Virus genome (UHGV): UHGV-1483403
Direction: 5' to 3' (one strand)
Source: a virus
DNA: 26,593 nucleotides
Below the pieces are notes generated by a model. The model ran no database searches, was not told the origin of the DNA, and worked only from the letters and a program-made list of their open reading frames with translations. Shown here piece by piece: positions 1-17,621 of this stretch. Numbering within the stretch: the stretch's first letter is position 1; every line of letters begins with the position of its first letter. A program made the translations under genes and the position numbers.

Positions 1-306
1 ATGAAATGACTGAGTCAGCCGAGAAGTATTTCCCCGCTTATTCGCACCTTCCCTAAGTGACATACCTAAAGTTTCGATATGCTGCTGAATATCCTGTAGC
101 GTCTGCGCCTGAGATAACAGGATTTCACGGTTGCATAACTCTTTAACCAGATGCTCAAACTTGCTGTAATAACCGATACGACTTAGTGTTTCTTTCCCTG
201 CATTCTCGCCTTCTTTGATAATTCCTCTTTCGCTAAGAATCAGATCGTGTTTGGTTCCGGTAATAACGTATTTTCCGAGGTCGATGTTTAGCTTCATTGT
301 TTTCAT
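1..306 (-). CDS. hypothetical protein, partial (ORF runs off the window start; N-terminus MKTMKLNIDLGKYVITG...)
   Basis: Open minus-strand frame from ATG at 304-306 to position 1 with no stop (102 codons); GAGG Shine-Dalgarno 8 nt upstream; starts 11 nt after the stop of the upstream gene. Not in the ORF track because it has no stop inside the window. Confidence 0.5.
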   Translation of the reverse strand, partial: MKTMKLNIDLGKYVITGTKHDLILSERGIIKEGENAGKETLSRIGYYSKFEHLVKELCNREILLSQAQTLQDIQQHIETLGMSLREGANKRGNTSRLTQSFH

Positions 307-316
307 TGTTAATTCC

Positions 317-613
317 TCAGTCATTACTGATAGCGCCATAGCGTGAGCGGTAATTACGCAGGCGAGGGTCGATATATTCAGGGAAGTGGGTATATGTGGC
401 TTTGCGGAATGGTCGGATTGATGTCTGGTAAATTCGCTCGCGTTCTTCTTTCTCTGCAAGCCATATACAATGGCGAAATTCCTTTTCCTCTTTCGTTTCC
501 TGCGGTAGCGACATTATCCGGTCGTAGTTTTTTCTGAATTTATCCAGCACCTCCGATACGGAATTGCCGGAACAGCGGCGCGGGTCATCCGCACCATACT
601 GAGGCGCTGGCAT
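317..613 (-). CDS. hypothetical early-operon protein (98 aa)
   Basis: Track ORF; AGGAG Shine-Dalgarno 6-7 nt upstream of the ATG; lies immediately downstream of ssb in the same operon. No family recognised. Confidence 0.6.
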   Translation of the reverse strand: MPAPQYGADDPRRCSGNSVSEVLDKFRKNYDRIMSLPQETKEEKEFRHCIWLAEKEERERIYQTSIRPFRKATYTHFPEYIDPRLRNYRSRYGAISND

Positions 614-626
614 GATTTTCTCCTGA

Positions 627-1133
627 TTAAATTGCGTGAATAGCGTGACGAGGGAAGGGGAGAGTTACTGGTGCAAAAGGTATATCGTCGTCAAAATCCA
701 TCGGAGGTTCGTTGTGTTGTGCTGGTGATGATTGCTGCTGTGGCTTCTGTGATTGCCTGCTGGCTGCTTGTTGTTTGCTGTCGCCAATGCCGCCAAGCAT
801 TTGCATCACGCCATTAATTCCGACATGAACCTCGGTTGTGTAACGGTCTTGCCCTGACTGGTCTTTCCACTTTCTGGTTCTCAGCATTCCCTCGAAATAA
901 ATCTGATCACCTTTTTTCACATACTGCCCCACGACCTCAGCCAGTTTCCCGGATACAGCAACACGATGCCATTCAGTCAATTCCTTTTGCTCGTCAGTAT
1001 TTTTATCTCGCCATTGTTCTGACGTGGCTATTGTCAGGTTAGCGAACGCTGTTCCTGATGGTGAGTATCGAACTTCCGGGTCTTGTCCTACCCGACCAAG
1101 GATAATCACCTTATTTACGCCTCTGCTTGCCAT
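627..1133 (-). CDS. ssb: single-stranded DNA-binding protein (SSB) with a 15-residue extension past the canonical DDDIPF tail
   Basis: Track ORF; OB-fold SSB N-terminal region ([23 protein letters not shown]...), Gln/Pro-rich linker, acidic tail ...[11 protein letters not shown] followed in frame by [15 protein letters not shown] before the TAA stop. Confidence 0.9.
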
Positions 1134-1841
1134 TTATGCCGCCTGTTTTAGTTCGTTAACTCTGATGTTCATTACCTGAACGCATTTAGCCTGCGCCTCC
1201 TCGTTGCCAGCCATTAATTGCCAGTCACGCTGATAACGCTCGATGAGTTTTTTCTTGTCAGTTTCTGTTGACGCATAATCGCTGAAGTCTTTCAGGATTT
1301 GTTCGCAGTCAACCGATGGAGATTTCTGGTTGGTATTTTCTGGTGATGGTTTGTTATCTGATGCTGGGATTGCCCATCCCGGCAGCGATGGAGGGAGCCA
1401 GTAAAATCCTGTTCCATCCTTCAGTTTTGCCCTGTGCCACCCCTGCTTTTTATCGAGAGATGTTTGTGCGAAACCTTCCTCAAGGTTATACAGATACCGA
1501 CCGATTCCCCATTGAACGGCAGCGCGCTTCATTGCACCGGAACGACCACCTTTGACGGCTTCTACCTGCGTGTTTTCAGCAGCATCCCATTTGGTTACCC
1601 ATTCGGAATCAATCTTTATTGATATGCCGCATTCAACTCCGCCGTTGTTGGGAATATCGCGGTATTCATTGCGCCATCCTGCTTTGCCGCAAACATCGTC
1701 CAGGCGTTTCATGATTGCCCGGTTCGTGACATAAGCCAGCACCATAGCCCACACCTTGCCATCGCGTGTTTTACCGCTTTGCTGTATTCGCCATTCGATA
1801 TCTTCAGGGCTGAATGGCTCATCGAATTTATTCAAATCCAT
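1134..1841 (-). CDS. single-strand annealing recombinase, Rad52/Rad22-like (SSAP)
   Basis: Track ORF; motif AMKRAAVQWGIGRYLY resembles the Rad52-family signature; sits directly upstream of ssb, a typical SSAP-SSB module; GAGGTGA Shine-Dalgarno upstream. Confidence 0.65.
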   Translation of the reverse strand: MDLNKFDEPFSPEDIEWRIQQSGKTRDGKVWAMVLAYVTNRAIMKRLDDVCGKAGWRNEYRDIPNNGGVECGISIKIDSEWVTKWDAAENTQVEAVKGGRSGAMKRAAVQWGIGRYLYNLEEGFAQTSLDKKQGWHRAKLKDGTGFYWLPPSLPGWAIPASDNKPSPENTNQKSPSVDCEQILKDFSDYASTETDKKKLIERYQRDWQLMAGNEEAQAKCVQVMNIRVNELKQAA

Positions 1842-1928
1842 AATTCACCTCAGAATGGACATGGCCCAAGGAAATAACGCTGATTTAATACTTCAGTCTT
1901 TGCCGCATTTAAAAATACGCGAACACCT

Positions 1929-2099
1929 TCACGATCTCCCTTCTGGCGATACATTAACGCCTGCTGCGTGTACATGCGTCTCTGTAACTTGCTCTCCTTC
2001 ACTGTGGTTGCAAGTGACATGCATATCTCCTTCGTTACCGATTAATTCTTTCATCTGACGAATGAATTCTTCGTCTGACCAGTTATCTGTAAAGCTCAT
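1929..2099 (-). CDS. small hypothetical protein (about 56 aa; the track ORF 1929..2114 begins at an upstream GTG)
   Basis: ATG at 2097-2099 overlaps the stop of the upstream small ORF (ATGA coupling); weak AGGA Shine-Dalgarno. Confidence 0.35.
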   Translation of the reverse strand: MSFTDNWSDEEFIRQMKELIGNEGDMHVTCNHSEGEQVTETHVHAAGVNVSPEGRS

Positions 2100-2248
2100 T
2101 TCCTGCGATACCACGGAAGGTTGATAGCTGATTTCATCGCTTTATTTGCTTCAAGCCACATTTTGGAATCACCAATAAATCTGGCTATTACTGCTTTGTT
2201 TTGTGCAGCACGAAGCATTTGGTGATTGATGGCTATTTCATTGCGCAT
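2096..2248 (-). CDS. small hypothetical protein (50 aa, MRNEIAINHQMLRAAQNKAV...)
   Basis: Hand-translated; below the track size cutoff; GGAGG Shine-Dalgarno 5 nt upstream of the ATG at 2246-2248; stop overlaps the next start. Confidence 0.45.
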   Translation of the reverse strand: MRNEIAINHQMLRAAQNKAVIARFIGDSKMWLEANKAMKSAINLPWYRRK

Positions 2249-2367
2249 AACGCCTCCAGTTGTTTCTTTGCTGCTCTGATTAATTGTTTAACTCGGCGTG
2301 ATAATTCAGATTCGTGCGGGTAGAAAGCGGACATGACGCCGCTACCCGCGAGCTGAAAGTGCATCAT
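2233..2367 (-). CDS. small hypothetical protein (44 aa, from the second in-frame start MMHFQLAGSG...)
   Basis: Track ORF 2233..2418; AAGGAG Shine-Dalgarno 6 nt upstream of the internal ATG at 2365-2367 makes this the likely start. Confidence 0.4.
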   Translation of the reverse strand: MMHFQLAGSGVMSAFYPHESELSRRVKQLIRAAKKQLEALCAMK

Positions 2368-2442
2368 GGGTGACTCCTTATATTTGATTGCATAACGAAA
2401 ATGCCTCTCGTGAAGCATTATTGGTATGCGGTAAAGCCGCGC

Positions 2443-2811
2443 TCAGGCGGCTTTGATAGTCATATCATCTGAATCAAATATTCCAGATGTGTCGATATCG
2501 GTAATTCTTATTCCTTCGCTACCATCCATTGAAGGCCATCCTTCCTGACCATTTCCATCATTCCAGTCGAACTCACACACAACACCATATGCATTTAAGT
2601 CGCTTGAAATTGCTATAAGCAGAGCATGTTGCGCTAGCATGATTAATACAGCATTTAATACAGAGCCGTGTTTTTTGAGTCTGTATTCAGAGTCTGACCA
2701 GAAATTATTAATCTGGTGAAGTTTTTCCTCTGTCATTACGTCATGGTCGATTTCAATTTCTATTGATGCTTTCCAGTCGTAATCAATGATGTATTTTTTG
2801 ATGTTTGACAT
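2443..2811 (-). CDS. hypothetical early-operon protein (122 aa, acidic C-terminal half)
   Basis: Track ORF; GAGGAAA Shine-Dalgarno upstream; lies just downstream of an intrinsic terminator. No family recognised. Confidence 0.65.
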   Translation of the reverse strand: MSNIKKYIIDYDWKASIEIEIDHDVMTEEKLHQINNFWSDSEYRLKKHGSVLNAVLIMLAQHALLIAISSDLNAYGVVCEFDWNDGNGQEGWPSMDGSEGIRITDIDTSGIFDSDDMTIKAA

Positions 2812-2831
2812 CTATTCATTTCCTCATAGAT

Positions 2832-2857
2832 AAAAAATCGCCCTCACATTGGAGGGC
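2832..2857 (-). terminator. rho-independent terminator (tL2-like) for leftward transcription
   Basis: Stem GCCCTC/GAGGGC (2840-2845 / 2852-2857) with a 6-nt loop; on the minus strand it is followed by a T6 run (plus-strand A6 at 2832-2837). Confidence 0.6.
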
Positions 2858-2952
2858 AAAGAAGATTTCCAATAATCAGAACAAGTCGGCTCCTGTTTAG
2901 TTACGAGCGACATTGCTCCGTGTATTCACTCGTTGGAATGAATACACAGTGC

Positions 2953-3138
2953 TTATTCGCGAGCTTTGAGCATTGCGTCTGCCATCGCATAAGCTTCTTT
3001 AGCAAGTGGTTCGTTGTCATAAAGCCTGTCTGGATTTGCACAAACTCCCTGCATGAACTTTGCTGCGAAGTAATCACGTAATGTCGCATCACTTGCCATT
3101 TCTGGGCGTTTGATATCTGCTTCATAAAACTCGCACAT
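2953..3138 (-). CDS. small hypothetical protein (61 aa from ATG; the track ORF begins one codon upstream at GTG)
   Basis: Track ORF 2953..3141; its ATG at 3136-3138 overlaps the TGA of the upstream small ORF by 1 nt. Confidence 0.5.
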   Translation of the reverse strand: MCEFYEADIKRPEMASDATLRDYFAAKFMQGVCANPDRLYDNEPLAKEAYAMADAMLKARE

Positions 3139-3272
3139 CACTCACCTCCAAGAGCATTTGCAGCCTCTTTTGCTTTGTGAATCCATAGCAGAGCCATGTA
3201 GTACACAGCCTTTTCGTCGGCTCCTGTGATATCTTGCTCTGCCATCCATTTTGTAAATTCAACTGCGTTCAT
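3138..3272 (-). CDS. small hypothetical protein (44 aa, MNAVEFTKWMAEQDITG...)
   Basis: Hand-translated; GAGGTG Shine-Dalgarno upstream of the ATG at 3270-3272; stop overlaps the next start (TGATG). Confidence 0.45.
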   Translation of the reverse strand: MNAVEFTKWMAEQDITGADEKAVYYMALLWIHKAKEAANALGGE

Positions 3273-3311
3273 ATTCACCTCTGTTGTTTATGCCAAAAAT
3301 AAAGGCCACCA

Positions 3312-3512
3312 TCAGGCAGCCTTGTTATTCTGTTTACCAAGTTCTCTGGCAATCATTGCCGTCGTTCGTATTGCCCATTTATCGACATATTTCCCATCTT
3401 CCATTACAGGAAACATTTCTTCAGGCTTAACCATGCATTCCGATTGCAGCTTGCATCCATTGCATCGCTTGAATTGTCCACACCATTGATTTTTATCAAT
3501 AGTCGTAGTCAT
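3312..3512 (-). CDS. ral: restriction-alleviation protein Ral-like (66 aa)
   Basis: Track ORF; sequence MTTTIDKNQWCGQFKRCNGCKLQSEC... matches my recollection of lambda Ral in length and sequence; expected position in the pL operon downstream of N. Confidence 0.7.
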   Translation of the reverse strand: MTTTIDKNQWCGQFKRCNGCKLQSECMVKPEEMFPVMEDGKYVDKWAIRTTAMIARELGKQNNKAA

Positions 3513-3582
3513 ACGGATAGTCCTGGTATTGTTCCATCACATCCTGAGGATGCTCTTCGAACTCTTCAAATTCTTCTTCCAT
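3496..3582 (-). CDS. micro-ORF / leader peptide (28 aa, MEEEFEEFEEHPQDVMEQYQDYPYDYDY) coupled to ral
   Basis: Hand-translated; GAGGTG Shine-Dalgarno upstream of the ATG at 3580-3582; its 3' end overlaps the ral start by 17 nt. Confidence 0.35.
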   Translation of the reverse strand: MEEEFEEFEEHPQDVMEQYQDYPYDYDY

Positions 3583-3694
3583 ATATCACCTCAAATAAGT
3601 GGTTTGCTGCCTAATTTCATTTTCTGGCGACCAACACAAGTCACACCCATTTCACTGCGTGGCTTGCGGTAGTAAATTAGGTTTGTTCAGACAA

Positions 3695-3716
3695 TAAAAA
3701 ACCCACCGAAGTGGGC
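3695..3716 (-). terminator. rho-independent terminator (tL1-like) directly after the N-coupled ORF
   Basis: Stem CCCAC/GTGGG (3702-3706 / 3711-3715) with a UUCG tetraloop on the minus transcript, followed by U6 (plus-strand A-run 3696-3701); abuts the TAG stop at 3716-3718. Confidence 0.6.
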
Positions 3717-4054
3717 TATGACCATTTTTTATTTGGATTTCGTTGGTGAGCGTGATTAACAACTCTGTGCATTACATCCTCATATTTTTCATCTTCAATT
3801 TTTTCGACATCGCGAGGAAATGGTGTTGCTAATGCTTTGTCAACTTTGTCCATTGGGTCTTCATTAATCTTATATTCAGGGCCATCATCTATAGCATTAA
3901 ATCCAGGTGTTACACCGTTTTTTAATGCATATGCTATCCTTTTTTCCCATCTCGCTATTCTCCTCCTGTCTCGAGATGTAAGACCTCTATCAGATACTTT
4001 TCTGTTTTGTCCGCGGTCAGGATTAACATAAATAGTCTTTTTCACCATAAGCAT
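3716..4054 (-). CDS. hypothetical basic protein coupled to N (about 112 aa), contains an Arg-rich segment SRDRRRIARWEKRIAYA
   Basis: Track ORF 3716..4060 (TTG at 4060); first ATG at 4052-4054 lies 2 nt after the N stop codon; followed immediately by a strong terminator. Confidence 0.55.
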   Translation of the reverse strand: MLMVKKTIYVNPDRGQNRKVSDRGLTSRDRRRIARWEKRIAYALKNGVTPGFNAIDDGPEYKINEDPMDKVDKALATPFPRDVEKIEDEKYEDVMHRVVNHAHQRNPNKKWS

Positions 4055-4056
4055 AC

Positions 4057-4362
4057 TCAATAAGCACCGTACGGTAGTTTACTGTACAATTTTATTTTTT
4101 GGACTGCATGTATTTTGTTTCCTAATGGGTTTGAATCTTTGTAATAAATACTTCTATTTTTTCGAACGACTTCTTCTTTCTTCTTGCAGCAAAGGCTTCC
4201 TAGCGATGCTGCTTTGTCTGCTCTGACGCAACCAGAGAGCTTTAGCGCAATTTTTCGCGCCAGTGCTTCATTACTGCGTCGCTCGGCAATAAGTTCTGCT
4301 CTGCGAGCTTTGTAGCGGCTTTTTGCCGTACCTTTGGATTCTTTCCAGACAATGGTTACCAT
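4057..4362 (-). CDS. N: transcription antiterminator N, phage-21 type
   Basis: Track ORF 4057..4392; true start is the ATG at 4360-4362 (MVTIVWKESKGTAKSRYKARRAELIAERR...), with AAGGAG Shine-Dalgarno 6 nt upstream. The arginine-rich motif GTAKSRYKARRAELIAERR matches the phi21 N boxB-binding peptide as I recall it. Confidence 0.85.
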   Translation of the reverse strand: MVTIVWKESKGTAKSRYKARRAELIAERRSNEALARKIALKLSGCVRADKAASLGSLCCKKKEEVVRKNRSIYYKDSNPLGNKIHAVQKIKLYSKLPYGAY

Positions 4363-4472
4363 GATGGTCTCCTTTAAGTGGCTTTGGCGCATGACGCGTC
4401 GAGGTGCTTATCTTCTCGATCGCTGTCTTGCAGCTGCAATTCGCGCCATCCCCAAAACCACTCAAGTTCTGG

Positions 4473-4512
4473 TCTCAACGGTTAGGTTGAGAGTCCGTCG
4501 ATGTTAAAGAGC
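4473..4512 (-). promoter_or_regulatory. nutL: boxA (GCTCTTTAACA, 4502-4512) and boxB hairpin (4473-4492)
   Basis: On the leftward transcript boxA GCUCUUUAACA is followed 9 nt later by hairpin UCUCAAC-CUAACC-GUUGAGA (7-bp stem, 6-nt loop); same boxA core and same loop as the nutR element. Confidence 0.7.
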
Positions 4513-4554
4513 CTGCCAATCTGTTCCGTTTGGCTTCCAGCGTCCTGCTGATGG

Positions 4555-4612
4555 CTTAAATTTAAGACTTCTTAATTTATTGGTCAAGTGCATTTTTGAA
4601 GAAAACTTAATT
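4555..4612 (-). promoter_or_regulatory. pL promoter with OL operators (P22-type 18-bp sites)
   Basis: Leftward -35 TTGACC (plus 4582-4587) and -10 TAAATT (plus 4559-4564) with 17-bp spacing; operator-like sites ATTTAAGACTTCTTAATT (4560-4577) and TTTGAAGAAAACTTAATT (4595-4612) fit the ANTNAAG-N4-CTTNANT pattern. Confidence 0.55.
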
Positions 4613-4651
4613 TTATGGGCGTGAATTTAGTTTGTCTTTGATTTTTAACGG

Positions 4652-4678
4652 GAAATAAAAAAGGGGCGAAAGCCCCTT
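4652..4678 (-). terminator. rho-independent terminator after the repressor gene
   Basis: Stem AAGGGGC/GCCCCTT (4661-4667 / 4672-4678) with a 4-nt loop, followed on the minus strand by UUUUAUUU; overlaps the c2 stop codon. Confidence 0.55.
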
Positions 4679-5327
4679 AAGGAAGGTTTGCTAGCTTGGC
4701 ATCAACGACAACGCCAATGATTTTACAGTTCCCATTGATTTCAATCATTGGGTATTGTGGATTGAGTGGTTTCAGGAATTTTCTACCGGCATCAATAACT
4801 AACTTTTTGAATGTCGCCTCGTTTTCTCCTTCAAGTTTGGCGACTACCAACTTTCCATTACGTGGTTCGACTTCTGGGTCGACGAGAATAATCATCCCCT
4901 CAGGAATACTCAGTCCTGCCGGGGCAGTCATTGAATCGCCTTTAACGTCGAGCCAAAAAGAGTCTTCAGAACAATCTACCGTTGTGTCGTACCAGTTATC
5001 TATTGCACGCCTATGATATGGCTCTACAGCTTCCATCCAACATCCTGCGCTTACCCAACTAATTAGAGGATACGAACCTCTTGGATCATGCCTGCTGTGA
5101 TAGGCAATGTTTGAAAGACTATCCTCTCCTTTCAACAGGTAATCAGGGGAGCACTGCAAAGCCTTGGCTAAGGCCAATAGGTTTTCGCCATTGGGCTCAG
5201 TTTCAGATCGCTCCCATTGGGAAATAGCAACATTAGACACGCCAACCATCTTGCCAAGGGCAGCCTGCCTAATCTTGAGTTCTTTTCTGCGAGCGCGAAT
5301 ACGCTCACCCATCAGTTGTGTATTCAT
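4677..5327 (-). CDS. c2: prophage repressor, P22 C2-like (HTH N-domain plus LexA/S24-like autocleavage C-domain)
   Basis: Track ORF; MNTQLMGERIRARRKELKIRQAALGKMVGVSNVAISQWERSE... matches my recollection of P22 c2; C-terminal S24 peptidase-like domain; flanked by P22-type operators. Confidence 0.9.
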   Translation of the reverse strand: MNTQLMGERIRARRKELKIRQAALGKMVGVSNVAISQWERSETEPNGENLLALAKALQCSPDYLLKGEDSLSNIAYHSRHDPRGSYPLISWVSAGCWMEAVEPYHRRAIDNWYDTTVDCSEDSFWLDVKGDSMTAPAGLSIPEGMIILVDPEVEPRNGKLVVAKLEGENEATFKKLVIDAGRKFLKPLNPQYPMIEINGNCKIIGVVVDAKLANLP

Positions 5328-5395
5328 AGTTAAGACATCTTAAATAAACTTGACTTAAGATTCCTTTGGTGGATAATTTAAGTGTTCTTTAATTT
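5328..5395. promoter_or_regulatory. OR operator triad with pR (rightward) and presumed pRM (leftward)
   Basis: Three 18-bp sites at 5328-5345 (AGTTAAGACATCTTAAAT), 5353-5370 and 5376-5393 (ATTTAAGTGTTCTTTAAT), 23-25 bp centre to centre; pR -35 TTGACT (5350-5355) and -10 GATAAT (5372-5377), 16-bp spacer. The site abutting the c2 start codon suggests a leaderless pRM transcript. No pRM hexamers were confidently identified. Confidence 0.7.
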
Positions 5396-5407
5396 CGGAG
5401 CGAGTCT

Positions 5408-5593
5408 ATGTACAAAAAAGATGTTATTGACCACTTCGGAACCCAGCGTGCTGTTGCTAAAGCACTAGGCATTAGCGATGCAGCAGTCTCTCAGTGGAAA
5501 GAAGTTATCCCAGAGAAAGACGCCTATCGATTGGAAATCGTTACAGCTGGCGCCCTGAAGTATCAAGAAAGTGCTTACCGCCAAGCGGCATAA
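5408..5593 (+). CDS. cro: Cro repressor, P22-type (61 aa)
   Basis: Track ORF; MYKKDVIDHFGTQRAVAKALGISDAAVSQWKEVIPEKDAYRLEIVTAGALKYQ... matches my recollection of P22 Cro; GGAG Shine-Dalgarno; downstream of pR. Confidence 0.9.
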   Translation: MYKKDVIDHFGTQRAVAKALGISDAAVSQWKEVIPEKDAYRLEIVTAGALKYQESAYRQAA

Positions 5594-5599
5594 GCAAAT

Positions 5600-5640
5600 T
5601 GCTCTTTAACAGTTCTGGCCTTTCACCTCTAACCGGGTGA
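5600..5640 (+). promoter_or_regulatory. nutR: boxA (TGCTCTTTAACA, 5600-5611) and boxB hairpin (5623-5640)
   Basis: boxA core identical to nutL; hairpin CACCU-CUAACC-GGGUG (one G-U pair) carries the same 6-nt loop CUAACC as nutL on a different stem. Confidence 0.7.
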
Positions 5641-5708
5641 GCAAACATCAGCGGCAAATCCATTGGGTGTGCCGCTATAACTCAATATCAATATAGGAAA
5701 ATTAACAA

Positions 5709-6005
5709 ATGGCACAAGCAAGCTACAGCAAGCCAACACAGCGAGAAATTGATCGCGCTGAAACTGATTTACTCATCAACCTGTCAACGCTTACCCAGCG
5801 CGGTCTGGCAAAGATGATTGGCTGTCATGAATCGAAGATAAGCAGAACGGACTGGAGATTTATTGCTTCGGTCTTGTGTGCTTTCGGAATGGCATCAGAC
5901 ATCAGTCCGATTAGCAGGGCTTTTAAGTATGCGCTTGATGAAATCACAAAGAAAAAATCCCCGGCCGCCACCGAGGATTTTAAGCAAATTGATATGCAAT
6001 TCTGA
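5709..6005 (+). CDS. cII: CII-like transcriptional activator (P22 C1 / lambda CII family)
   Basis: Track ORF; C-terminus [18 protein letters not shown] parallels lambda CII NKKRPAATERSEQIQMEF; HTH-like central region; position after cro and nutR. Confidence 0.75.
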
Positions 6006-11593: not shown

Positions 11594-11778
11594 ACGCCAC
11601 AATTCAAACGATACCAGAGCTTCTTATCCAGACACGAGGCAATCAGACCGAAGTGGCGAGGATGCTTTCCTGTGCAAGAGGAACAGTGCTCAAGTACAAC
11701 CGAGACAGCAAAGGTGAGCGTCACGTAATAGTTAACGGCGTCCTGATGGTCAAACAGGGCAGGAGAGGAAGACGATGA
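11590..11778 (+). CDS. ninH: NinH-like protein
   Basis: Track ORF; ...GNQTEVARMLSCARGTVLKY...VNGVLMV parallels lambda NinH; overlaps rusA and Q boundaries. Confidence 0.75.
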   Translation: MNATIQTIPELLIQTRGNQTEVARMLSCARGTVLKYNRDSKGERHVIVNGVLMVKQGRRGRR

Positions 11779-12398
11779 GACTCGAAAGCGTAGCTAAATT
11801 TCATTCGCCAAAAAGCCCGATGATGAGTGACTCACCACGGGCTACGGCTTCTGACTCTCTTTCCGGTACCGATGTGATGGCTGCTATGGGGATGGCGCAA
11901 TCACAAGCAGGATTCGGAATGGCTGCATTCTGCGGTAAGCACGAACTCAGCCAGAACGACAAACAAAAGGCTATCAACTATCTGATGCAATTTGCACACA
12001 AGGTATCGGGGAAATACCGTGGTGTGGCAAAGCTCGAAGGAAATACTAAGGCAAAGGTACTGCAAGTGCTCGCAACATTCGCTTATGCGGATTATTGCCG
12101 TAGTGCCGCGACGCCGGGGGCAAGATGCAGAGATTGCCACGGTACAGGTCGTGCGGTTGATATAGCAAAAACAGAGCAGTGGGGGAGAGTTGTTGAGAAA
12201 GAGTGCGGAAGATGCAAAGGTGTCGGCTATTCAAGAATGCCAGCAAGCGCCGCATATCGCGCTGTAACGATGCTAATCCCAAACCTTACCCAACCCACCT
12301 GGTCACGCACTGTTAAGCCGCTGTATGACGCTCTGGTCGTGCAATGCCACAAGGAAGAGTCAATCGCAGACAACATTTTGAATGAGGTCACACGTTAA
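11775..12398 (+). CDS. Q: late-gene antiterminator Q, lambda type
   Basis: Track ORF; 207 aa, MRLESVAKFHSPKSPMMSDSPRATASDSLSGTDVMAAMG... is essentially identical to lambda Q as I recall it; zinc-binding Cys cluster. Confidence 0.9.
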   Translation: MRLESVAKFHSPKSPMMSDSPRATASDSLSGTDVMAAMGMAQSQAGFGMAAFCGKHELSQNDKQKAINYLMQFAHKVSGKYRGVAKLEGNTKAKVLQVLATFAYADYCRSAATPGARCRDCHGTGRAVDIAKTEQWGRVVEKECGRCKGVGYSRMPASAAYRAVTMLIPNLTQPTWSRTVKPLYDALVVQCHKEESIADNILNEVTR

Positions 12399-12831: not shown

Positions 12832-13155
12832 ATGAAGATGCCAGAAAAACATGACCTTTTAGCCGCCATTCTCGCGGCAAAGGAACAAGGCATCGGGGCA
12901 ATCCTTGCGTTTGCAATGGCGTACCTTCGCGGCAGATATAATGGCGGTGCGTTTACAAAAACAGTAATCGACGCAACGATGTGCGCCATTATCGCCTGGT
13001 TCATTCGTGACCTTCTCGACTTCGCCGGACTAAGTAGCAATCTCGCTTATATAACGAGCGTGTTCATCGGCTACATCGGTACTGACTCGATTGGTTCGCT
13101 TATCAAACGCTTCGCTGCTAAAAAAGCCGGAGTAGAAGATGGTGGAAATCAATAA
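12832..13155 (+). CDS. S: holin S (class I, dual-start holin/antiholin)
   Basis: Track ORF; essentially identical to lambda S107 as I recall it ([35 protein letters not shown]...). Confidence 0.9.
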
Positions 13156-13615
13156 TCAACGTAAGGCGTTCCTCGATATGCTGGCATGGTCAGAAGGAAC
13201 GGATAACGGGCGACAACCGACACGTAACCACGGTTATGATGTTATTGTTGGTGGCGAACTGTTCACTGATTACTCCGATCACCCTCGCAAACTTGTCACG
13301 CTAAACCCAAAACTCAAATCAACAGCCGCCGGACGTTACCAGCTTCTTTCACGCTGGTGGGATGCTTACCGTAAACAGCTTGGCCTGAAAGATTTTTCTC
13401 CAGAAAGCCAGGACGCTGTAGCTCTGCAGCAGATTAAAGAGCGTGGTGCTTTACCGATGATTGACCGCGGCAGTATTCGTCAGGCAATCGACCGTTGCAG
13501 CAATATCTGGGCGTCGTTACCTGGTGCAGGTTACGGTCAGTATGAACATAAAATCGGTGACCTGATTGCCCGATTTAAAAAAGCTGGTGGGGTAGTAAAT
13601 GAAGCTGAGATATAA
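13139..13615 (+). CDS. R: endolysin R (lytic transglycosylase), lambda-like
   Basis: Track ORF; [25 protein letters not shown]... roughly 90 percent identical to lambda R from memory; start overlaps the S stop. Confidence 0.9.
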
Positions 13616-13991
13616 GCTGGTTATTGTTGCCTTCGTTGTTACCGTCATTGGTTCCTTCATCTGGTCTGCTGGGCATTACTACAGCAAATATCAGCACGAA
13701 AAGGAGCGTGCTGATGAGGCTGTACGAAATGCTGAATCAGCAACTGCCATTACCCGTAACGTTCTGCAATCACTGCAAATCATCAATACAGTTATAGAGG
13801 CTAACCAGCATGCAAAAGAGCAGATCGCACTGGACGCATCGGGAGCCTCGGCTGATATCCGGGTTGCTGTTGCGAATGATGATTGCACTAATCGCCATGT
13901 CCCTGCTGGCGCAGTTAAGCGGCTGCAACAATTCGCGAACGGTCTACGTCAAAGTGCCGGTAGTCCCGTTACCGGCCAGCCTGACGGCTGA
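13599..13991 (+). CDS. Rz: i-spanin Rz (non-lambda family)
   Basis: Track ORF; N-terminal transmembrane segment LVIVAFVVTVIGSFIW followed by a coiled-coil-like periplasmic region; overlaps the R stop. Confidence 0.75.
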   Translation: MKLRYKLVIVAFVVTVIGSFIWSAGHYYSKYQHEKERADEAVRNAESATAITRNVLQSLQIINTVIEANQHAKEQIALDASGASADIRVAVANDDCTNRHVPAGAVKRLQQFANGLRQSAGSPVTGQPDG

Positions 13992-14133
13992 CACCCCGCA
14001 ACCGGAAATCCCTGACAACCTGACGTGGGGCCAGAGCCTAGATTTAAACGTCAGTCTCCTATCAGCGCTTGGGCAGTGCAACCGGGATAAGGCAGATATT
14101 AGGCAAGCTGTAAAGAAACAAGCGGGCCAATAA
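13876..14133 (+). CDS. Rz1: o-spanin Rz1 (lipoprotein) in the +1 frame, extending past the Rz stop
   Basis: In-frame ATG at 13876 within track ORF 13810..14133; signal peptide with lipobox LAQLSG|C; proline-rich mature region; ends 142 nt beyond Rz. Confidence 0.6.
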   Translation: MMIALIAMSLLAQLSGCNNSRTVYVKVPVVPLPASLTADTPQPEIPDNLTWGQSLDLNVSLLSALGQCNRDKADIRQAVKKQAGQ

Positions 14134-14155
14134 GCCCGCACTTATGGAGGATTCA
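14122..14155 (-). terminator. strand-specific terminator for the minus-strand moron gene
   Basis: Hairpin GCGGGC-CAATAA-GCCCGC (14122-14139). On the minus transcript it sits 22 nt after the ClpP-like stop and is followed by UUGUUUCUUUA; on the plus (late) transcript no U-run follows. Confidence 0.4.
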
Positions 14156-14160
14156 AAATG

Positions 14161-14721
14161 TTACAGAACCCACCACCTGATCGAATCTGTGGGTATGGTT
14201 GCAGCCTCGACATTCTGGATCATACCCAACTCGGTGGCCCTTCCCGGATCAATGATGGTTGCAGAAGTGATCAAATTAGCCCAGTCAATTTGCTCATCTG
14301 GGGCTACAGCGAGAGCCTCGATATTCATCACCTGCACAAATCTTTGCAAGTCGTCATCCAGACATGCCGCCCATTCCCTAAGCCTGAGGTGATCTGCTTG
14401 TGGGGCGGCAAATCCCCAATGTAAAGGATGTAATAAAAATCGCGAGAGAGGATTAGCAAACCGCTCAGATCCAGCCATGAAAATAACATTTGCTATAGAT
14501 TCCACGTTACTAAGGTTATGTGTCTTCACCTTTACAGGAAGAGACTTAAGAAAGTTGTATGCGGTAAAACCTGCAACGGTATCTCCACCTTTACTAGAGA
14601 TGTAAATCCTGATCTCAGAGGCTGGTTGGTTAGGGCTTGATATCGCTTTGAGGCAAACATCCATAAGGCTGGATACAGAAGCAACTGTCACATCTGTCAT
14701 GAAGTGTACGGTATGGATCAT
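14161..14721 (-). CDS. ClpP-fold (S14-like) serine peptidase homologue, stand-alone, lacking the N-terminal axial-loop region
   Basis: Track ORF; by-eye alignment to E. coli ClpP: IRIYISSKGGDTVAG vs IYLYINSPGGVITAG; NVESIANVIFMAG vs GQAASMGAFLLTAG (Ser aligned to the catalytic Ser); RFANPLSRFLLHPL vs RFCLPNSRVMIHQPL (His aligned to the catalytic His). Convergent to the late operon, between Rz1 and terminase. Confidence 0.65.
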   Translation of the reverse strand: MIHTVHFMTDVTVASVSSLMDVCLKAISSPNQPASEIRIYISSKGGDTVAGFTAYNFLKSLPVKVKTHNLSNVESIANVIFMAGSERFANPLSRFLLHPLHWGFAAPQADHLRLREWAACLDDDLQRFVQVMNIEALAVAPDEQIDWANLITSATIIDPGRATELGMIQNVEAATIPTDSIRWWVL

Positions 14722-14788
14722 TTAAGTTTCCCAGAGATATGCCGCAATTGGCATTTTCATAATGCACATAAAGTGAAAGGTTTTCTGC

Positions 14789-14803
14789 GTAAACCCGGAT
14801 GAA
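14789..14803. promoter_or_regulatory. 15-bp perfect palindrome ATGAAAT-T-ATTTCAT upstream of the ClpP-like gene
   Basis: Exact inverted repeat, about 70-80 bp upstream (minus-strand sense) of the ClpP-like start. Confidence 0.3.
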
Positions 14804-14823
14804 ATTATTTCATGAAGTAAGGC

Positions 14824-14858
14824 ATTACAGAAGCCCTTCATTGAGGGGCTTCGATAAT
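14824..14858 (-). other. conserved stem-loop element, copy 1 (7-bp stem GAAGCCC/GGGCTTC, 9-nt loop TTCATTGAG, 4-bp flanking helix)
   Basis: Same architecture and near-identical loop as copy 2 at 15019-15053; stems differ by compensatory changes; a G-U pair forms only on the minus-strand RNA. Confidence 0.5.
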
Positions 14859-15018
14859 GAAACCGGAATTTATTCTGGGTAACCAGTTACGGCAGTACAG
14901 CGAAACAACCCAAGCCAGTAAGTGGGGAAATAACACTGGCAGCCACTGAAAGATGAACCTCCTGCCTTATGGCAAAAAAGATTCTTTGTGGTGGCGGACT
15001 GATGGAAAGACATCGGTT

Positions 15019-15053
15019 ATTGCAGAGACCATTCAATGAGTGGTCTCGACAAT
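15019..15053 (-). other. conserved stem-loop element, copy 2 (7-bp stem GAGACCA/TGGTCTC, 9-nt loop TTCAATGAG, 4-bp flanking helix)
   Basis: See copy 1; three stem positions and one flank position differ between copies while keeping Watson-Crick pairing. Confidence 0.5.
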
Positions 15054-15183
15054 GGCTTATACCCTACACGGGATAACTTAACTGATATCCCCACAAGCGG
15101 ATAAAGAGATTCTCAATGTCAGGAATCTACTTTTAGTCCTAGTAATGATGAACTAGATATCAGCTGAGTCGCTTGGGTGGTGA

Positions 15184-15420
15184 TTACGATTCTGCTTCAA
15201 ACTCAGAAATTAGTTGATGAACACGTTCAGTATATGATGGGTTAGAACCTAGAAACTCTTCCACTGTCTGAATGGTTTCATCACCCTCCCATTCAAAATG
15301 GCTCACAGGTGACGAATGACCAGCCCTGACTTGGTAGGAGCCATTGTCCAATTTGTCCAGGAATATATAAGTTTCATTATCATGACCTGTATTTCGGTAA
15401 AAAATTTGCTTTGAGTTCAT
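15184..15420 (-). CDS. small acidic hypothetical protein (78 aa)
   Basis: Track ORF; AGGA Shine-Dalgarno 8 nt upstream of the ATG; only 24 bp separate its start from the divergent terminase small-subunit start, so its promoter would lie inside the terminase coding region. Confidence 0.45.
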   Translation of the reverse strand: MNSKQIFYRNTGHDNETYIFLDKLDNGSYQVRAGHSSPVSHFEWEGDETIQTVEEFLGSNPSYTERVHQLISEFEAES

Positions 15421-15444
15421 TAAAGAAATCCTCTAGAGAAAACT

Positions 15445-15996
15445 ATGGCACTCACCGACAAACAAGAGATGTTCTGTCGCGAGTACCTCATCGATTTAAA
15501 CGCCACACAAGCGGCTATTCGGGCGGGGTACAGCGCAAAGACAGCTAACCGTACCGCATCCGAAAACATGTCAAAACCTGACATCCAATTCAGAATCGCC
15601 GAACTGAAAGCGCAACGCAATGATCTTGTTGGTATTAATGCAGAATATGTGCTTAATCGCCTTATTGAAATCGACCAGATGGATGTGCTCGACATTCTCC
15701 TGCAAAACGGTGAGTTAAAGCCCATTAAAGACTGGCCTAAGGTATGGCGCACAACGTTATCAGGAATGGATGTTGTGGAGATGGTATCCGCAGATAGTGC
15801 TGCTCTCCTGAAGAAAATCAAATGGCCTGATAAGGTTAAAAACCTTGAGTTGCTCGGGCGTCATGTTTCTGTTCAGGCGTTTAAAGACAACGTCAAAAAT
15901 GAAGTGACTGGTGCTGACGGAGGACCAGTCAGAACAGAAATTACCAACTTAACGCCGGAGCAGGCTGCAGAGGCGTATAGAAAAATGATGGGCTAA
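15445..15996 (+). CDS. terminase small subunit (Terminase_2-like)
   Basis: Track ORF; N-terminal HTH-like segment ([24 protein letters not shown]) typical of small terminases; immediately upstream of the large subunit. Confidence 0.8.
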
Positions 15997-15998
15997 GT

Positions 15999-17621
15999 AT
16001 GCCGTTACCATTCCCCTTCGATTTTAAACATCCTGATTACCAGATGGTTTTTGAATGGCGGATGGAACGCTTACAGCGCATTCGCCAGAACCCTGAAATA
16101 TTGCCAGCACTAAAACAGTTTTACCGAACCAACCCGGCTCAGTTCATCATCGACTGGGGCATGACAACGGACCCGCGTAATATTGATTATGGCCTGCCGG
16201 TGACCATTCCGTTTTTACTCTTCCCTAAGCAGGAGGAGTGGATCCACTGGATTATGGAACGCTGGGGTAATCGGGAGAATGGTATTACCGAAAAATCCCG
16301 TGAAATGGGGCTCAGTTGGACCGCGATCGGACTGGCCTGCTCGCTTTGTCTCTTCAACAAAGAAATGGTTATCGGTTTCGGCTCCCGTAAAGAGGAATAC
16401 GTCGACAGCACCGGTGACCCGAAAGCATTGTTCTGGAAGGCGCGCAAGTTCGTGGAAACACTACCTGTAGAGTTTCGCGGTTCGTGGAGCGAGAAGAAGC
16501 ACGCGCCATATATGCGTGTTGAGTTTCCTGAAACTGGTGCCGTTATCAAAGGCGAGGCTGGCGATAATATTGGTCGTGGTGACCGTACCACGCTTTATCT
16601 GGTTGATGAGGCTGCATTCCTTCAGCGTCCTCTGCTGATTGATGCGGCGTTGTCACAAACGACGCGTTGCCGTATCGACCTGAGTTCGGTTAACGGCATG
16701 GCGAACCCGTTCGCGCAGAAGCGTCACGGCGGGAAGATACCGGTATTCACATTCCACTGGCGGGATGATCCTCGCAAGGATGAAGAGTGGTATCGCAGGG
16801 AATGCGAGAAAATCGATAATCCGGTGGTGGTGGCACAGGAACTTGATCTGAACTACAGCGCATCAGCGGAAGGCGTCCTGATTCCATCCGAATGGGTACA
16901 GGCTGCCGTTGATGCGCATATCAAACTGGGTATCCAGCCAACAGGCAAACGACTTGGCGCGATGGATGTCGCTGATGAAGGCAGGGACAAAAATGCCTTT
17001 TCCACCCGTCATGGCTTCCTCCTGGAAAATGTGCGGGAATGGTCTGGTGTGGGTAGCGACATTTATCAGTCCGTCGAGAAGGTCTTCGGTTTTTGCGAAC
17101 AGGACAACCTCGAAGAGTTTCGCTTTGACGAGGACGGGCTGGGCGCTGGCGTTCGCGGCGATGCACGCGCTATCAACGAACTGCGTAACGCTGCGCGCCG
17201 ACCGTCAATACTCGCCACACCGTTTCGAGGTAGTGGCGCGGTATTTGATCCGGACGACGAAGCGGTGCGCGGTGACAACGGACAGGCCGCCCGCCTGAAC
17301 AAGGACTTCTTCGCTAACGCCAAAGCCCAGAGCTGGTGGCGGTTACGTAAACTTTTTCAGAATACCTGGCGCGCCGTGGTTGAAGGTATGGATTACAACC
17401 CGGACGAAATCATCTCAATCAGCAGTAGCATGGCACTCAAAGATAAACTCATCATCGAGCTTTCGCAGCCGACCTATTCCATTAATGGTGTGGGGAAAAT
17501 CGTTATTGATAAACAGCCTGATGGAACCCGGTCGCCAAACCTTGCCGACTCGGTGATGATCAGCTACGCGCCAATGAATTCAGCCCTGAATATCTGGGAG
17601 CTGCTAGGGAGACAGGCCTGA
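15999..17621 (+). CDS. terminase large subunit (ATPase plus nuclease)
   Basis: Track ORF; 540 aa; Walker B-like [10 protein letters not shown]; deviant Walker A region around EKSREMGLS; position between the small subunit and portal. Confidence 0.8.

Follow-up and report, generated by a model that had tools for sequence, protein, structure and literature searches.

ORF78, an uncharacterized, probable late-region accessory gene in a cargo slot head-to-head with the small terminase gene of enterobacterial lambdoid prophages

We analyzed the virus genome UHGV-1483403 (26,593 nt; hereafter, the window, meaning this whole stretch), with a focus on ORF78, a small open reading frame (ORF) of the minus strand that faces terS, the gene of the small terminase subunit. 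Our results indicate that ORF78 is very probably an independent accessory gene, or moron, that occupies a hypervariable cargo slot. This slot and the small terminase gene lie head-to-head in one Terminase_2 lineage of enterobacterial lambdoid prophages. ORF78 is absent from most relatives, where it is replaced at the same position by dozens of unrelated genes. The complete reading, in which this moron also acts stoichiometrically as proposed below, is probable, although with somewhat less confidence than its first part. ORF78 is an uncharacterized late-region moron and the slot is the more interesting object of the two. The features on which the argument is built are the following:

15184 to 15420, minus strand: coding sequence of ORF78, a 78-aa acidic protein (sequence, homologues, dN/dS, AlphaFold2 model)
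15429 to 15433 (read as 15433-15429), minus strand: Shine-Dalgarno (SD) sequence GAGGA of ORF78, 8 nt before its ATG (sequence and homologue alignment)
15421 to 15444: 24-bp head-to-head spacer TAAAGAAATCCTCTAGAGAAAACT, which holds both ribosome-binding sites (sequence)
15445 to 15996, plus strand: terS, Terminase_2 small terminase subunit (Pfam PF03592, E 2.7e-39)
15469 to 15534: frozen block of 66 nt, terS codons 9-30 (synonymous invariance; travels with the cargo slot)

The start codon of ORF78 is found at 15420-15418 and its stop codon at 15186-15184. A sequence-only reading of this DNA had described a 78-aa acidic ORF on the minus strand with a plausible SD, starting 24 bp from the divergent start of terS, and both statements were confirmed: the SD is GAGGA, the product contains 14 acidic and 5 basic residues (isoelectric point of 4.6 and net charge of −9), and the spacer spans 15421-15444, directly before the terS ATG at 15445. 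A purine run resembling an SD is present at the same place in every diverged homologue of the alignment. The predicted product presents no signal peptide and no membrane segment, and is judged to be cytoplasmic; we found no enzyme or catalytic motif in it. The G+C-content of ORF78 is low relative to the whole window (respectively, 39% and 49%). Its RefSeq name is "hypothetical protein", and terS is annotated as "terminase small subunit" in E. coli genomes.

We collected at least 120 IMG/VR stretches with an exact 29-mer from the terS block. Nearly all of them harbor an SD-bearing ORF on the opposite strand, 14-33 nt from the terS ATG, and the spacer measures 24 nt at the median in 115 related loci (mostly 17-30 nt). 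The 111 cargo proteins found among the matches listed, most of them small, fall into 36 unrelated clusters. The largest clusters are a YodC/DUF2158-like family (21 of the 111), a 111-aa family (11), a 92-aa membrane protein (9), a family of about 200 aa with a 217-aa representative (9), and a 77-aa family (8), and ORF78 itself accounts for just two proteins. Recognizable cargo includes TIR/ThsB-like (E 2.5e-44), PDC-S66 (E 1.6e-109), DUF4145, and DUF6173 proteins. The cargo genes are poorer in G+C than terS (on average, 41.6% and 49.5%, respectively), and this difference was observed in 111 of the 115 loci. Different cargo was found in the same slot beside closely related terS genes (about 88-98% identical). 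The right boundary of the slot, which corresponds to terS codons 1-30, is conserved, and its left boundary is variable.

A second sample of terS genes was gathered by peptide patterns instead of nucleotide identity. A divergent gene was present in 34 of its 35 distinct upstream contexts, and the exception is a broken copy of one. Among 5426 complete E. coli genomes, 194 contain the terS block, and 12 of those 194 contain ORF78. The block is also carried by E. coli B laboratory strains and by the enteropathogenic E. coli strain E2348/69, in which the cargo is a 182-aa protein. A DNA search found the block in one isolated phage record only. In Cronobacter phage phiES15 (L237, JQ780327.1), we observed a divergent ORF of 72 aa (MSDEYKKRIGIP...) at about 1700-1780 of the minus strand, which is not annotated in GenBank. 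This ORF starts 22 nt from the terS ATG and its family is also found in the slot of E. coli 1223 (L011). The cargo genes of the slot are easily missed by annotation.

We searched for a gene that accompanies ORF78 and rejected the existence of a fixed partner, as the downstream neighbors differ in every diverged locus. The distant homologues of ORF78 also occupy accessory zones of mobile elements: in a Serratia prophage, one lies between Rz and Nu1 in antisense orientation, and others were found beside a defense-like island and beside an integrase. In a metagenome-assembled genome (MAG) of Candidatus Thiodiazotropha (L234), the homologue P0033 (5001-5231) is located 335 nt downstream of a same-strand cluster (1-4666) that encodes an N6_N4 methyltransferase, a PRTase-CE, and an ORC-CDC6-like protein, a set of domains typical of conflict systems.

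Chance alone could produce an ORF of 78 aa: such lengths often arise at random (56 ORFs of 40 aa or more overlap the 6.5 kb around it), and no promoter was found by consensus scan. Under this explanation, the function of the locus would lie only in antisense RNA or DNA signals. We consider ORF78 to be a real gene because it is conserved. Its homologues form 13 protein clusters in a word-indexed search; an exhaustive profile search yielded 16 proteins (E ≤ 0.001), including about a dozen small, full-length relatives, and a second profile search found 27 proteins. Relatives of 76-86 aa with ~30-50% identity are found in Serratia, in the Thiodiazotropha MAG, and in metagenomes, and the alignment reveals the motif D-x-E-x-Y-I-F-L-D ... 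V-R-x-G-x-S ... E-F-L. Codon alignments of ORF78 with five diverged copies yielded proportions of synonymous differences (pS) of 0.69-0.95, which represents saturation, and of non-synonymous differences (pN) of 0.09-0.30, with dN/dS ratios of 0.05-0.09 where computable. This pattern indicates strong purifying selection. Finally, an AlphaFold2 model built from a 10-sequence alignment was confident (pLDDT of 84.7 and pTM of 0.69). Synonymous saturation with a conserved protein, a conserved SD, homologues in other genera, and a confident model make a chance ORF barely credible, and the substitution pattern already contradicts this alternative. Taken together, the comparisons show that ORF78 is a conserved gene for a small acidic protein.

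ORF78 belongs to no described family. Pfam returned no match at E ≤ 1 for 18 members of the family, PHROG no match to ORF78 below E 0.01, and a tblastn search of 50,697 phage records no match at all. A scan of genome contigs yielded no confirmed relative and a literature search by protein accession found no match. At the structural level, a fold search of BFVD with ORF78 matched uncharacterized proteins only, with no relevant fold, and the family profile searched against PDB sequences gave only noise, with no PUR, Whirly, or PC4 chain.

The model of ORF78 predicts four antiparallel strands followed by two C-terminal helices. This beta-beta-beta-beta-alpha topology is shared with the PUR repeat/Whirly/PC4 fold (Borrelia Pur-alpha 3n8b, Drosophila Pur-alpha 3k44, and BPSL1147 5a4o). 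PUR, Whirly, and PC4 proteins bind nucleic acid, whereas ORF78 is predicted to be strongly acidic and its charge of −9 argues against such binding. The structural scores reflect shared topology only; because of the absence of profile similarity and the net charge of −9, we interpret this likeness as a resemblance and not as membership. The same features suggest another explanation, in which ORF78 would be a mimic or decoy of nucleic acid that inhibits a DNA- or RNA-binding defense or host protein, in the manner of anti-restriction or anti-defense proteins. The modeled fold is nearest to the single-stranded DNA- or RNA-binding PUR, Whirly, and PC4 proteins and to the acidic Mam33/p32, it would carry a charge of −9, and the protein is small and stands alone. 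The fold likeness is one of topology, and we consider a mimic improbable.

The position of ORF78 relative to terS is constant. Wherever the contig is long enough, ORF78 starts 24-27 bp from a Terminase_2 terS, and the large terminase gene (TerL) behind this terS varies: it is of the type found in the window, Terminase_3, or Terminase_6C. Antisense to terS codons 1-21, a stretch of 62 nt retains 87-97% identity in every ORF78 copy except one. In contrast, the synonymous sites of ORF78 are saturated in the same copies and their spacers are just 30-45% identical. Remnants of terS also accompany ORF78 homologues. In L028, which possesses an unrelated small terminase, a 96-nt remnant of the terS 5' end precedes the homologue; in L014, a 5' remnant of ~75 nt lies beside it; and the L027 remnant, now decayed (65% identity), has lost its coding capacity ("MSITEK*"). 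ORF78 thus shows physical linkage to the initial ~60-95 nt of terS.

We then compared synonymous changes along 31 terS representatives with less than 97% nucleotide identity and amino-acid identity down to 62%. Codon pairs with a synonymous difference make up a fraction of 0.04-0.08 within codons 11-30 and of 0.35-0.49 elsewhere. Codons 121-140, where the amino acids are equally conserved, remain within this latter range. Four codons are identical in 31 of the 31 genes (Arg12 CGC, Arg26 CGG, Gly28 GGG, and Ser30 AGC), and codons 4, 6, and 8 vary freely. Across the 35 contexts, the frozen block differs by three mismatches at most. A more distant terS in E. coli phage vB_EcoM-683R1 presents the same amino-acid motif directly after Rz, with no divergent gene; 8 of its 19 shared codons differ synonymously and the frozen block is absent. 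The constraint therefore acts on nucleotides and is tied to the architecture of the slot or to this lineage.

Three readings fit the frozen stretch. It may serve the divergent cargo as a promoter or regulatory region. In favor of this interpretation, the remnants stay with ORF78 where terS has been lost, and the motif TGnNATnnT was kept in seven of the eight diverged ORF78 loci, including the decayed remnant of L027. Against it, the portion under the greatest constraint is located further upstream than any −35 element would be for the candidate −10 element defined below. Alternatively, it may represent a pac element. The stretch encodes the invariant N-terminal DNA-binding motif of TerS, and pac sites are commonly found inside terS genes (P22, P1, SPP1). 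Finally, it may represent a homology anchor that is kept uniform by frequent exchange of cargo. Three adjacent 6-bp palindromes (TCGCGA, ATCGAT, and TTTAAA) were observed within 15469-15534; they may be due to chance, or be part of a protein-binding or pac signal.

The sequence-only reading had further stated that the promoter of ORF78 must lie in the coding sequence of terS. The geometry of the locus bears this out, and the argument appears sound, if unproven. The SD of terS is weak (GAGA, 15436-15439, plus strand), and the two opposed SDs stand back to back on the palindrome CTCTAGAG (15431-15438), 2 nt apart. Since they use up the 24-bp spacer, the ORF78 promoter must overlap terS. Indeed, a transcript that includes the SD of ORF78 must start at or above 15434, which would place the −10 element on the terS start codon or deeper and the −35 element wholly inside terS. 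We identified the following candidate:

15442 to 15450, minus strand: candidate extended −10 element TGcCATAGT, which includes the complement (CAT) of the start codon of terS (weak support)

The predicted start of transcription for this element is at about 15434-15436. Other candidates were tried and rejected. A −10 element CATnnT common to all cargo genes was discarded, as T is found at −7 in 35 of 74 junctions against a background of 43%. The score of a promoter candidate TTGACA-15-TACGGT at 15574-15548 was within the range of shuffled sequences. The frozen block, read by eye on both strands, revealed no convincing sigma-70 or sigma-54 element, and the RNA folding of the terS 5' region was not significant (z of −1.6). 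On the other side of ORF78, one structure was identified just downstream of the stop codon:

15078 to 15166, minus strand: long imperfect hairpin (−33.9 kcal/mol, z of −1.0)

The arms of this hairpin are CTGATATC (15082-15089) and GATATCAG (15156-15163), and it possibly represents the 3' end of the ORF78 transcript. We folded six diverged copies of the locus: L004, L012, L013, and L014 present a G+C-rich hairpin ~10-12 nt after the stop codon, and no comparable hairpin follows the homologue in L027 and L028.

The same sequence-only reading had placed ORF78 in a three-part unit of the minus strand, in which ORF78, a structured RNA, and a ClpP-like gene would form a module of effector and regulator. 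In the lambdoid prophage of the window, these elements are arranged as follows:

11775 to 12398: Q antiterminator gene
12832 to 13991: holin, lysozyme, and Rz genes
14139 to 14122: strong terminator-like site (hairpin) of the ClpP-like gene
14161 to 14721, minus strand: ClpP-like gene
14814 to 15091: conserved non-coding block of 278 nt, the left flank of the slot in this phage (phage and E. coli matches)

About 460 nt without a long ORF separate the ClpP-like gene from ORF78, and terS is followed on the plus strand by TerL and then by a DUF1073 portal gene. In the window, the two genes are neighbors with a shared orientation, the scan found nothing stronger between them than a weak terminator candidate at 14979-14958, and the arrangement is repeated in two IMG/VR contigs (L018 and L019). 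However, L018 and L019 match the window at 100% identity in each of the five proteins tested, from lysozyme to terS, and they are the only loci with the ClpP-like gene among the 14 IMG/VR loci with ORF78. The synteny among the 5426 complete E. coli genomes does not support the unit: ORF78 is found in 12 genomes and the ClpP-like gene in 7, with zero overlap. A megablast search of these genomes with 14100-15500 found none that covers 80% of the query. One group of genomes matches 14100-14859 (Rz1 and the ClpP-like gene), and the other matches from about 14813-14892 onward (conserved block, ORF78, and terS), which places a junction between the two modules at 14813-14859. Elsewhere, the ClpP-like gene travels with the Rz1 lysis module, which it follows, and precedes a different terminase.

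The "structured region" of this proposed unit is mostly the 278-nt block. This block is common lambdoid sequence, with 91-97% identity in 190 phage records (HK97, HK022, mEp, and P22-like Salmonella phages), and most of the 2389 E. coli records matched by the 14100-15500 query were matched through it. It is unannotated in HK97 and only tiny ORFs are predicted in it in phage Dewey. An Rfam scan of 13500-16000 at E ≤ 1 returned nothing, and the only folded part (15040-15186, which includes the 3' flank of ORF78) is not significant (z of −1.0). ORF78 is therefore not linked to the ClpP-like gene, and a common unit of the two is very improbable. We also rejected the 278-nt block as a universal left anchor of the slot, since only 16 of the 120 slot loci listed contain it. 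Its copies stop repeatedly at the same positions (about 15010, 15060, 15100, and 15130).

The ClpP-like gene itself can be regarded as a separate antisense moron, always located after the Rz1 module in the seven complete E. coli genomes that carry it. Its product matches Pfam CLP_protease (E 4.9e-12), its best PHROG match is a head maturation protease, and no PADLOC model matched it; the Ser (VESIA) and His (SRFLLHPL) residues of the triad are seemingly retained, as judged by eye. At the junction of the ClpP module and the ORF78 module in the window, we observed a hairpin, GAAGCCCTTCATTGAGGGGCTTC (14830-14852), within an element of 37-44 nt (14819-14862). This element recurs alone in otherwise unrelated slot loci (L092, L100, L103, L125, L130, and L141) and is also found directly after Rz in phage vB_EcoM-683R1.

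The closest analogue of ORF78 is the gene pid of phage P22, which encodes an acidic protein of 86 aa (isoelectric point of 4.7) and is an antisense moron between the lysis and packaging genes (PMC3573128, Cenens et al. 2013). Similarly to pid, ORF78 encodes a small acidic protein antisense to the late operon and is located between lysis and packaging genes. Both loci also directly follow the same conserved block, which abuts pid in P22 (positions 14889-15075 of the window correspond to P22 40180-40368 at 93% identity). The two genes differ in several respects: their sequences are not similar; in P22, orf80 and orf59c separate pid from a terS of a different family, such that pid is not head-to-head with terS; and pid possesses a Rho-independent terminator, whereas none was found for ORF78. 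Pid targets DgoR and derepresses the host dgo operon, and it is expressed in the carrier state and not in stable lysogens (PMC3573128). The slot itself can be compared to TERi of the Listeria comK-prophage, where alternating, unrelated small defense genes that block packaging lie downstream of a conserved promoter (bioRxiv 10.1101/2025.02.27.640495). In both cases, mostly small, unrelated genes alternate after a conserved segment and are oriented against a lytic module. The TERi segment is a promoter found in 96% of prophages that has been mapped and mutated, whereas the promoter of the slot is only inferred. Moreover, TERi belongs to a different host and a different module (early lytic genes), and TerI is accompanied by dedicated self-immunity genes, none of which was seen for ORF78.

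One alternative is that ORF78 acts on DNA packaging, either by inhibiting the terminase of incoming phages in the manner of TerI or by modulating its own TerS. The tight linkage of ORF78 to terS across three types of TerL, the TERi precedent of a conserved promoter with alternating small genes and a packaging block (bioRxiv 10.1101/2025.02.27.640495), and a small acidic product with no enzymatic motif are in line with such a role. However, the linkage to terS belongs to the slot and not to ORF78, as it is shared by 35 other unrelated cargo families among the matches listed. In addition, distant homologues are located away from any Terminase_2 terS (L233, with a Nu1 terminase, L234, and L235), and ORF78 shows no likeness in sequence or fold to a known packaging inhibitor. 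We thus consider this role improbable.

It is also conceivable that ORF78 titrates a regulator of the host and thereby reprograms its physiology, in the manner of Pid with DgoR, perhaps during stationary phase or in the carrier state. The candidate −10 element presents a C at −13, which is a feature favored by sigma-S. YodC/DUF2158-like proteins are the most frequent occupants of the slot (21 of the 111 proteins listed), and the chromosomal yodC is sigma-S dependent (PMC5437024). Furthermore, the position, orientation, size, and acidity of ORF78 are the same as those of pid (PMC3573128). On the other hand, ORF78 is not related to Pid in sequence and the sigma-S reading is drawn from a weak motif. 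This explanation seems unlikely, although slightly less so than a role in packaging or mimicry. A related lead came from IsrI, a sigma-S-dependent coding small RNA of Gifsy-1 (PMC5437024). An Rfam scan of 12 cargo loci for small RNAs of the IsrI type returned only unrelated matches, and the lead could therefore not be tied to the slot.

Further analogues are the morons bor and lom of phage lambda, which, following the concept of Hendrix and Juhala, are extra genes of the late region with a deviant composition that are expressed independently of the late operon. ORF78 presents the patchy distribution, replacement at the same site, and deviant G+C-content of a moron; as to a promoter and terminator of its own, geometry would put the promoter in terS, and the hairpin downstream has no U-tract. 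Bor and Lom are envelope proteins with signal sequences, whereas ORF78 is predicted to be cytoplasmic and has no signal peptide. The slot, in turn, has the fixed position, the many unrelated cargos, and the occasional defense genes of a hotspot. The P2/P4 hotspots are a general model for variable accessory and defense cargo (PMC9122126), and Tai defense genes are described "upstream of the packaging module" in lambdoid phages (PMC11364771). The slot shares with them a fixed position, conserved bounding genes, and variable cargo that includes anti-phage systems. It differs from them in that a median of 24 nt separates its start from an essential structural gene, in that its conserved boundary lies inside a coding sequence where synonymous change is suppressed, and in that its cargo is mostly very small and unannotated. 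In the papers that we searched, we came across no account of this head-to-head slot or of the frozen stretch within terS.

If ORF78 is an independent moron of this slot, its transcription would start at or inside the 5' end of terS and run against the late operon. The gene would be expressed during lysogeny, the carrier state, or early infection, when the late operon is not transcribed, and the late read-through antiterminated by Q would silence it by collision. The product would be a cytoplasmic, strongly acidic, and probably dimeric beta-beta-beta-beta-alpha protein with no fixed partner gene, which would most likely bind and titrate a host protein or one from a competing phage, by analogy with Pid and DgoR or TerI and the terminase. 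We expect stoichiometric binding since ORF78 presents no catalytic motif, no membrane segment, and no constant neighbor, and since its compact, acidic fold is of a kind that usually dimerizes. The chances that ORF78 plays a role in phage–phage or phage–host conflict are about even, and each specific target (a host regulator, a terminase, or a nucleic-acid-binding defense protein) is, taken singly, unlikely.

Several results weigh against this scenario. A consensus scan of 14100-16100 found no sigma-70-like promoter, and the best promoter hits of a position weight matrix (PWM) were within the range of shuffled sequences. The candidate extended −10 element scores 3.8 with the PWM relative to a mean of 8.7 for the best shuffled hits, and it is not general to the other cargo genes. 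Instead of a promoter, the frozen stretch of terS may represent a pac element or an anchor for recombination. Neither the scan nor the folding revealed a U-tract terminator after ORF78. Since P22 Pid is not expressed in stable lysogens, the expression of ORF78 in lysogens cannot be assumed. PADLOC matched ORF78 to no defense or anti-defense model. Finally, truncated, frameshifted, or insertion sequence (IS)-interrupted alleles occur (P0010, P0011, P0013, and P0036), which indicates that ORF78 is dispensable, as accessory genes are. In L007-L009 (5498-5698 and equivalents), an IS3-family element with HTH_Tnp_1 and rve genes is inserted in the ORF78 homologue after about codon 32. This insertion leads to a chimeric product of 66 aa (P0013), and a gene with a SIR2_2 domain is found 2.6 kb further on.

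One annotation near the slot calls for comment. In E. coli B C2566 (L231), a truncated DUF1073 portal-like gene after TerL (5177-5935) is named "anti-CBASS protein Acb1 family protein" by the Prokaryotic Genome Annotation Pipeline (PGAP). An intact homologue elsewhere is called DUF1073, and the name Acb1 looks like an annotation artefact or a case of domain sharing.

By itself, ORF78 is an ordinary uncharacterized prophage accessory gene, and its value lies in its context. This terS lineage is also present in hundreds of IMG/VR contigs (at least 580 loci); the identity of the divergent gene changes from phage to phage, and this gene often lacks an annotation. Because few of the cargos are recognizable defense genes and most are unknown, the slot constitutes a cheap and well-defined place to seek small conflict effectors. 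The frozen sites of terS offer a testable case of a second function that overlaps an essential coding sequence, be it a promoter, a pac signal, or a recombination anchor. We tentatively raise the possibility, doubtful as it is, that the frozen 66-nt stretch and the short spacer form a portable expression dock for at least 36 unrelated cargo genes. If true, an essential packaging gene would harbor a promoter or regulatory region that drives whichever cargo has recombined in, ORF78 would represent a new family of acidic inhibitors with a PUR-like fold, and the slot would be a previously undescribed and easily searchable hotspot of small anti-phage, anti-defense, or host-modulating proteins.

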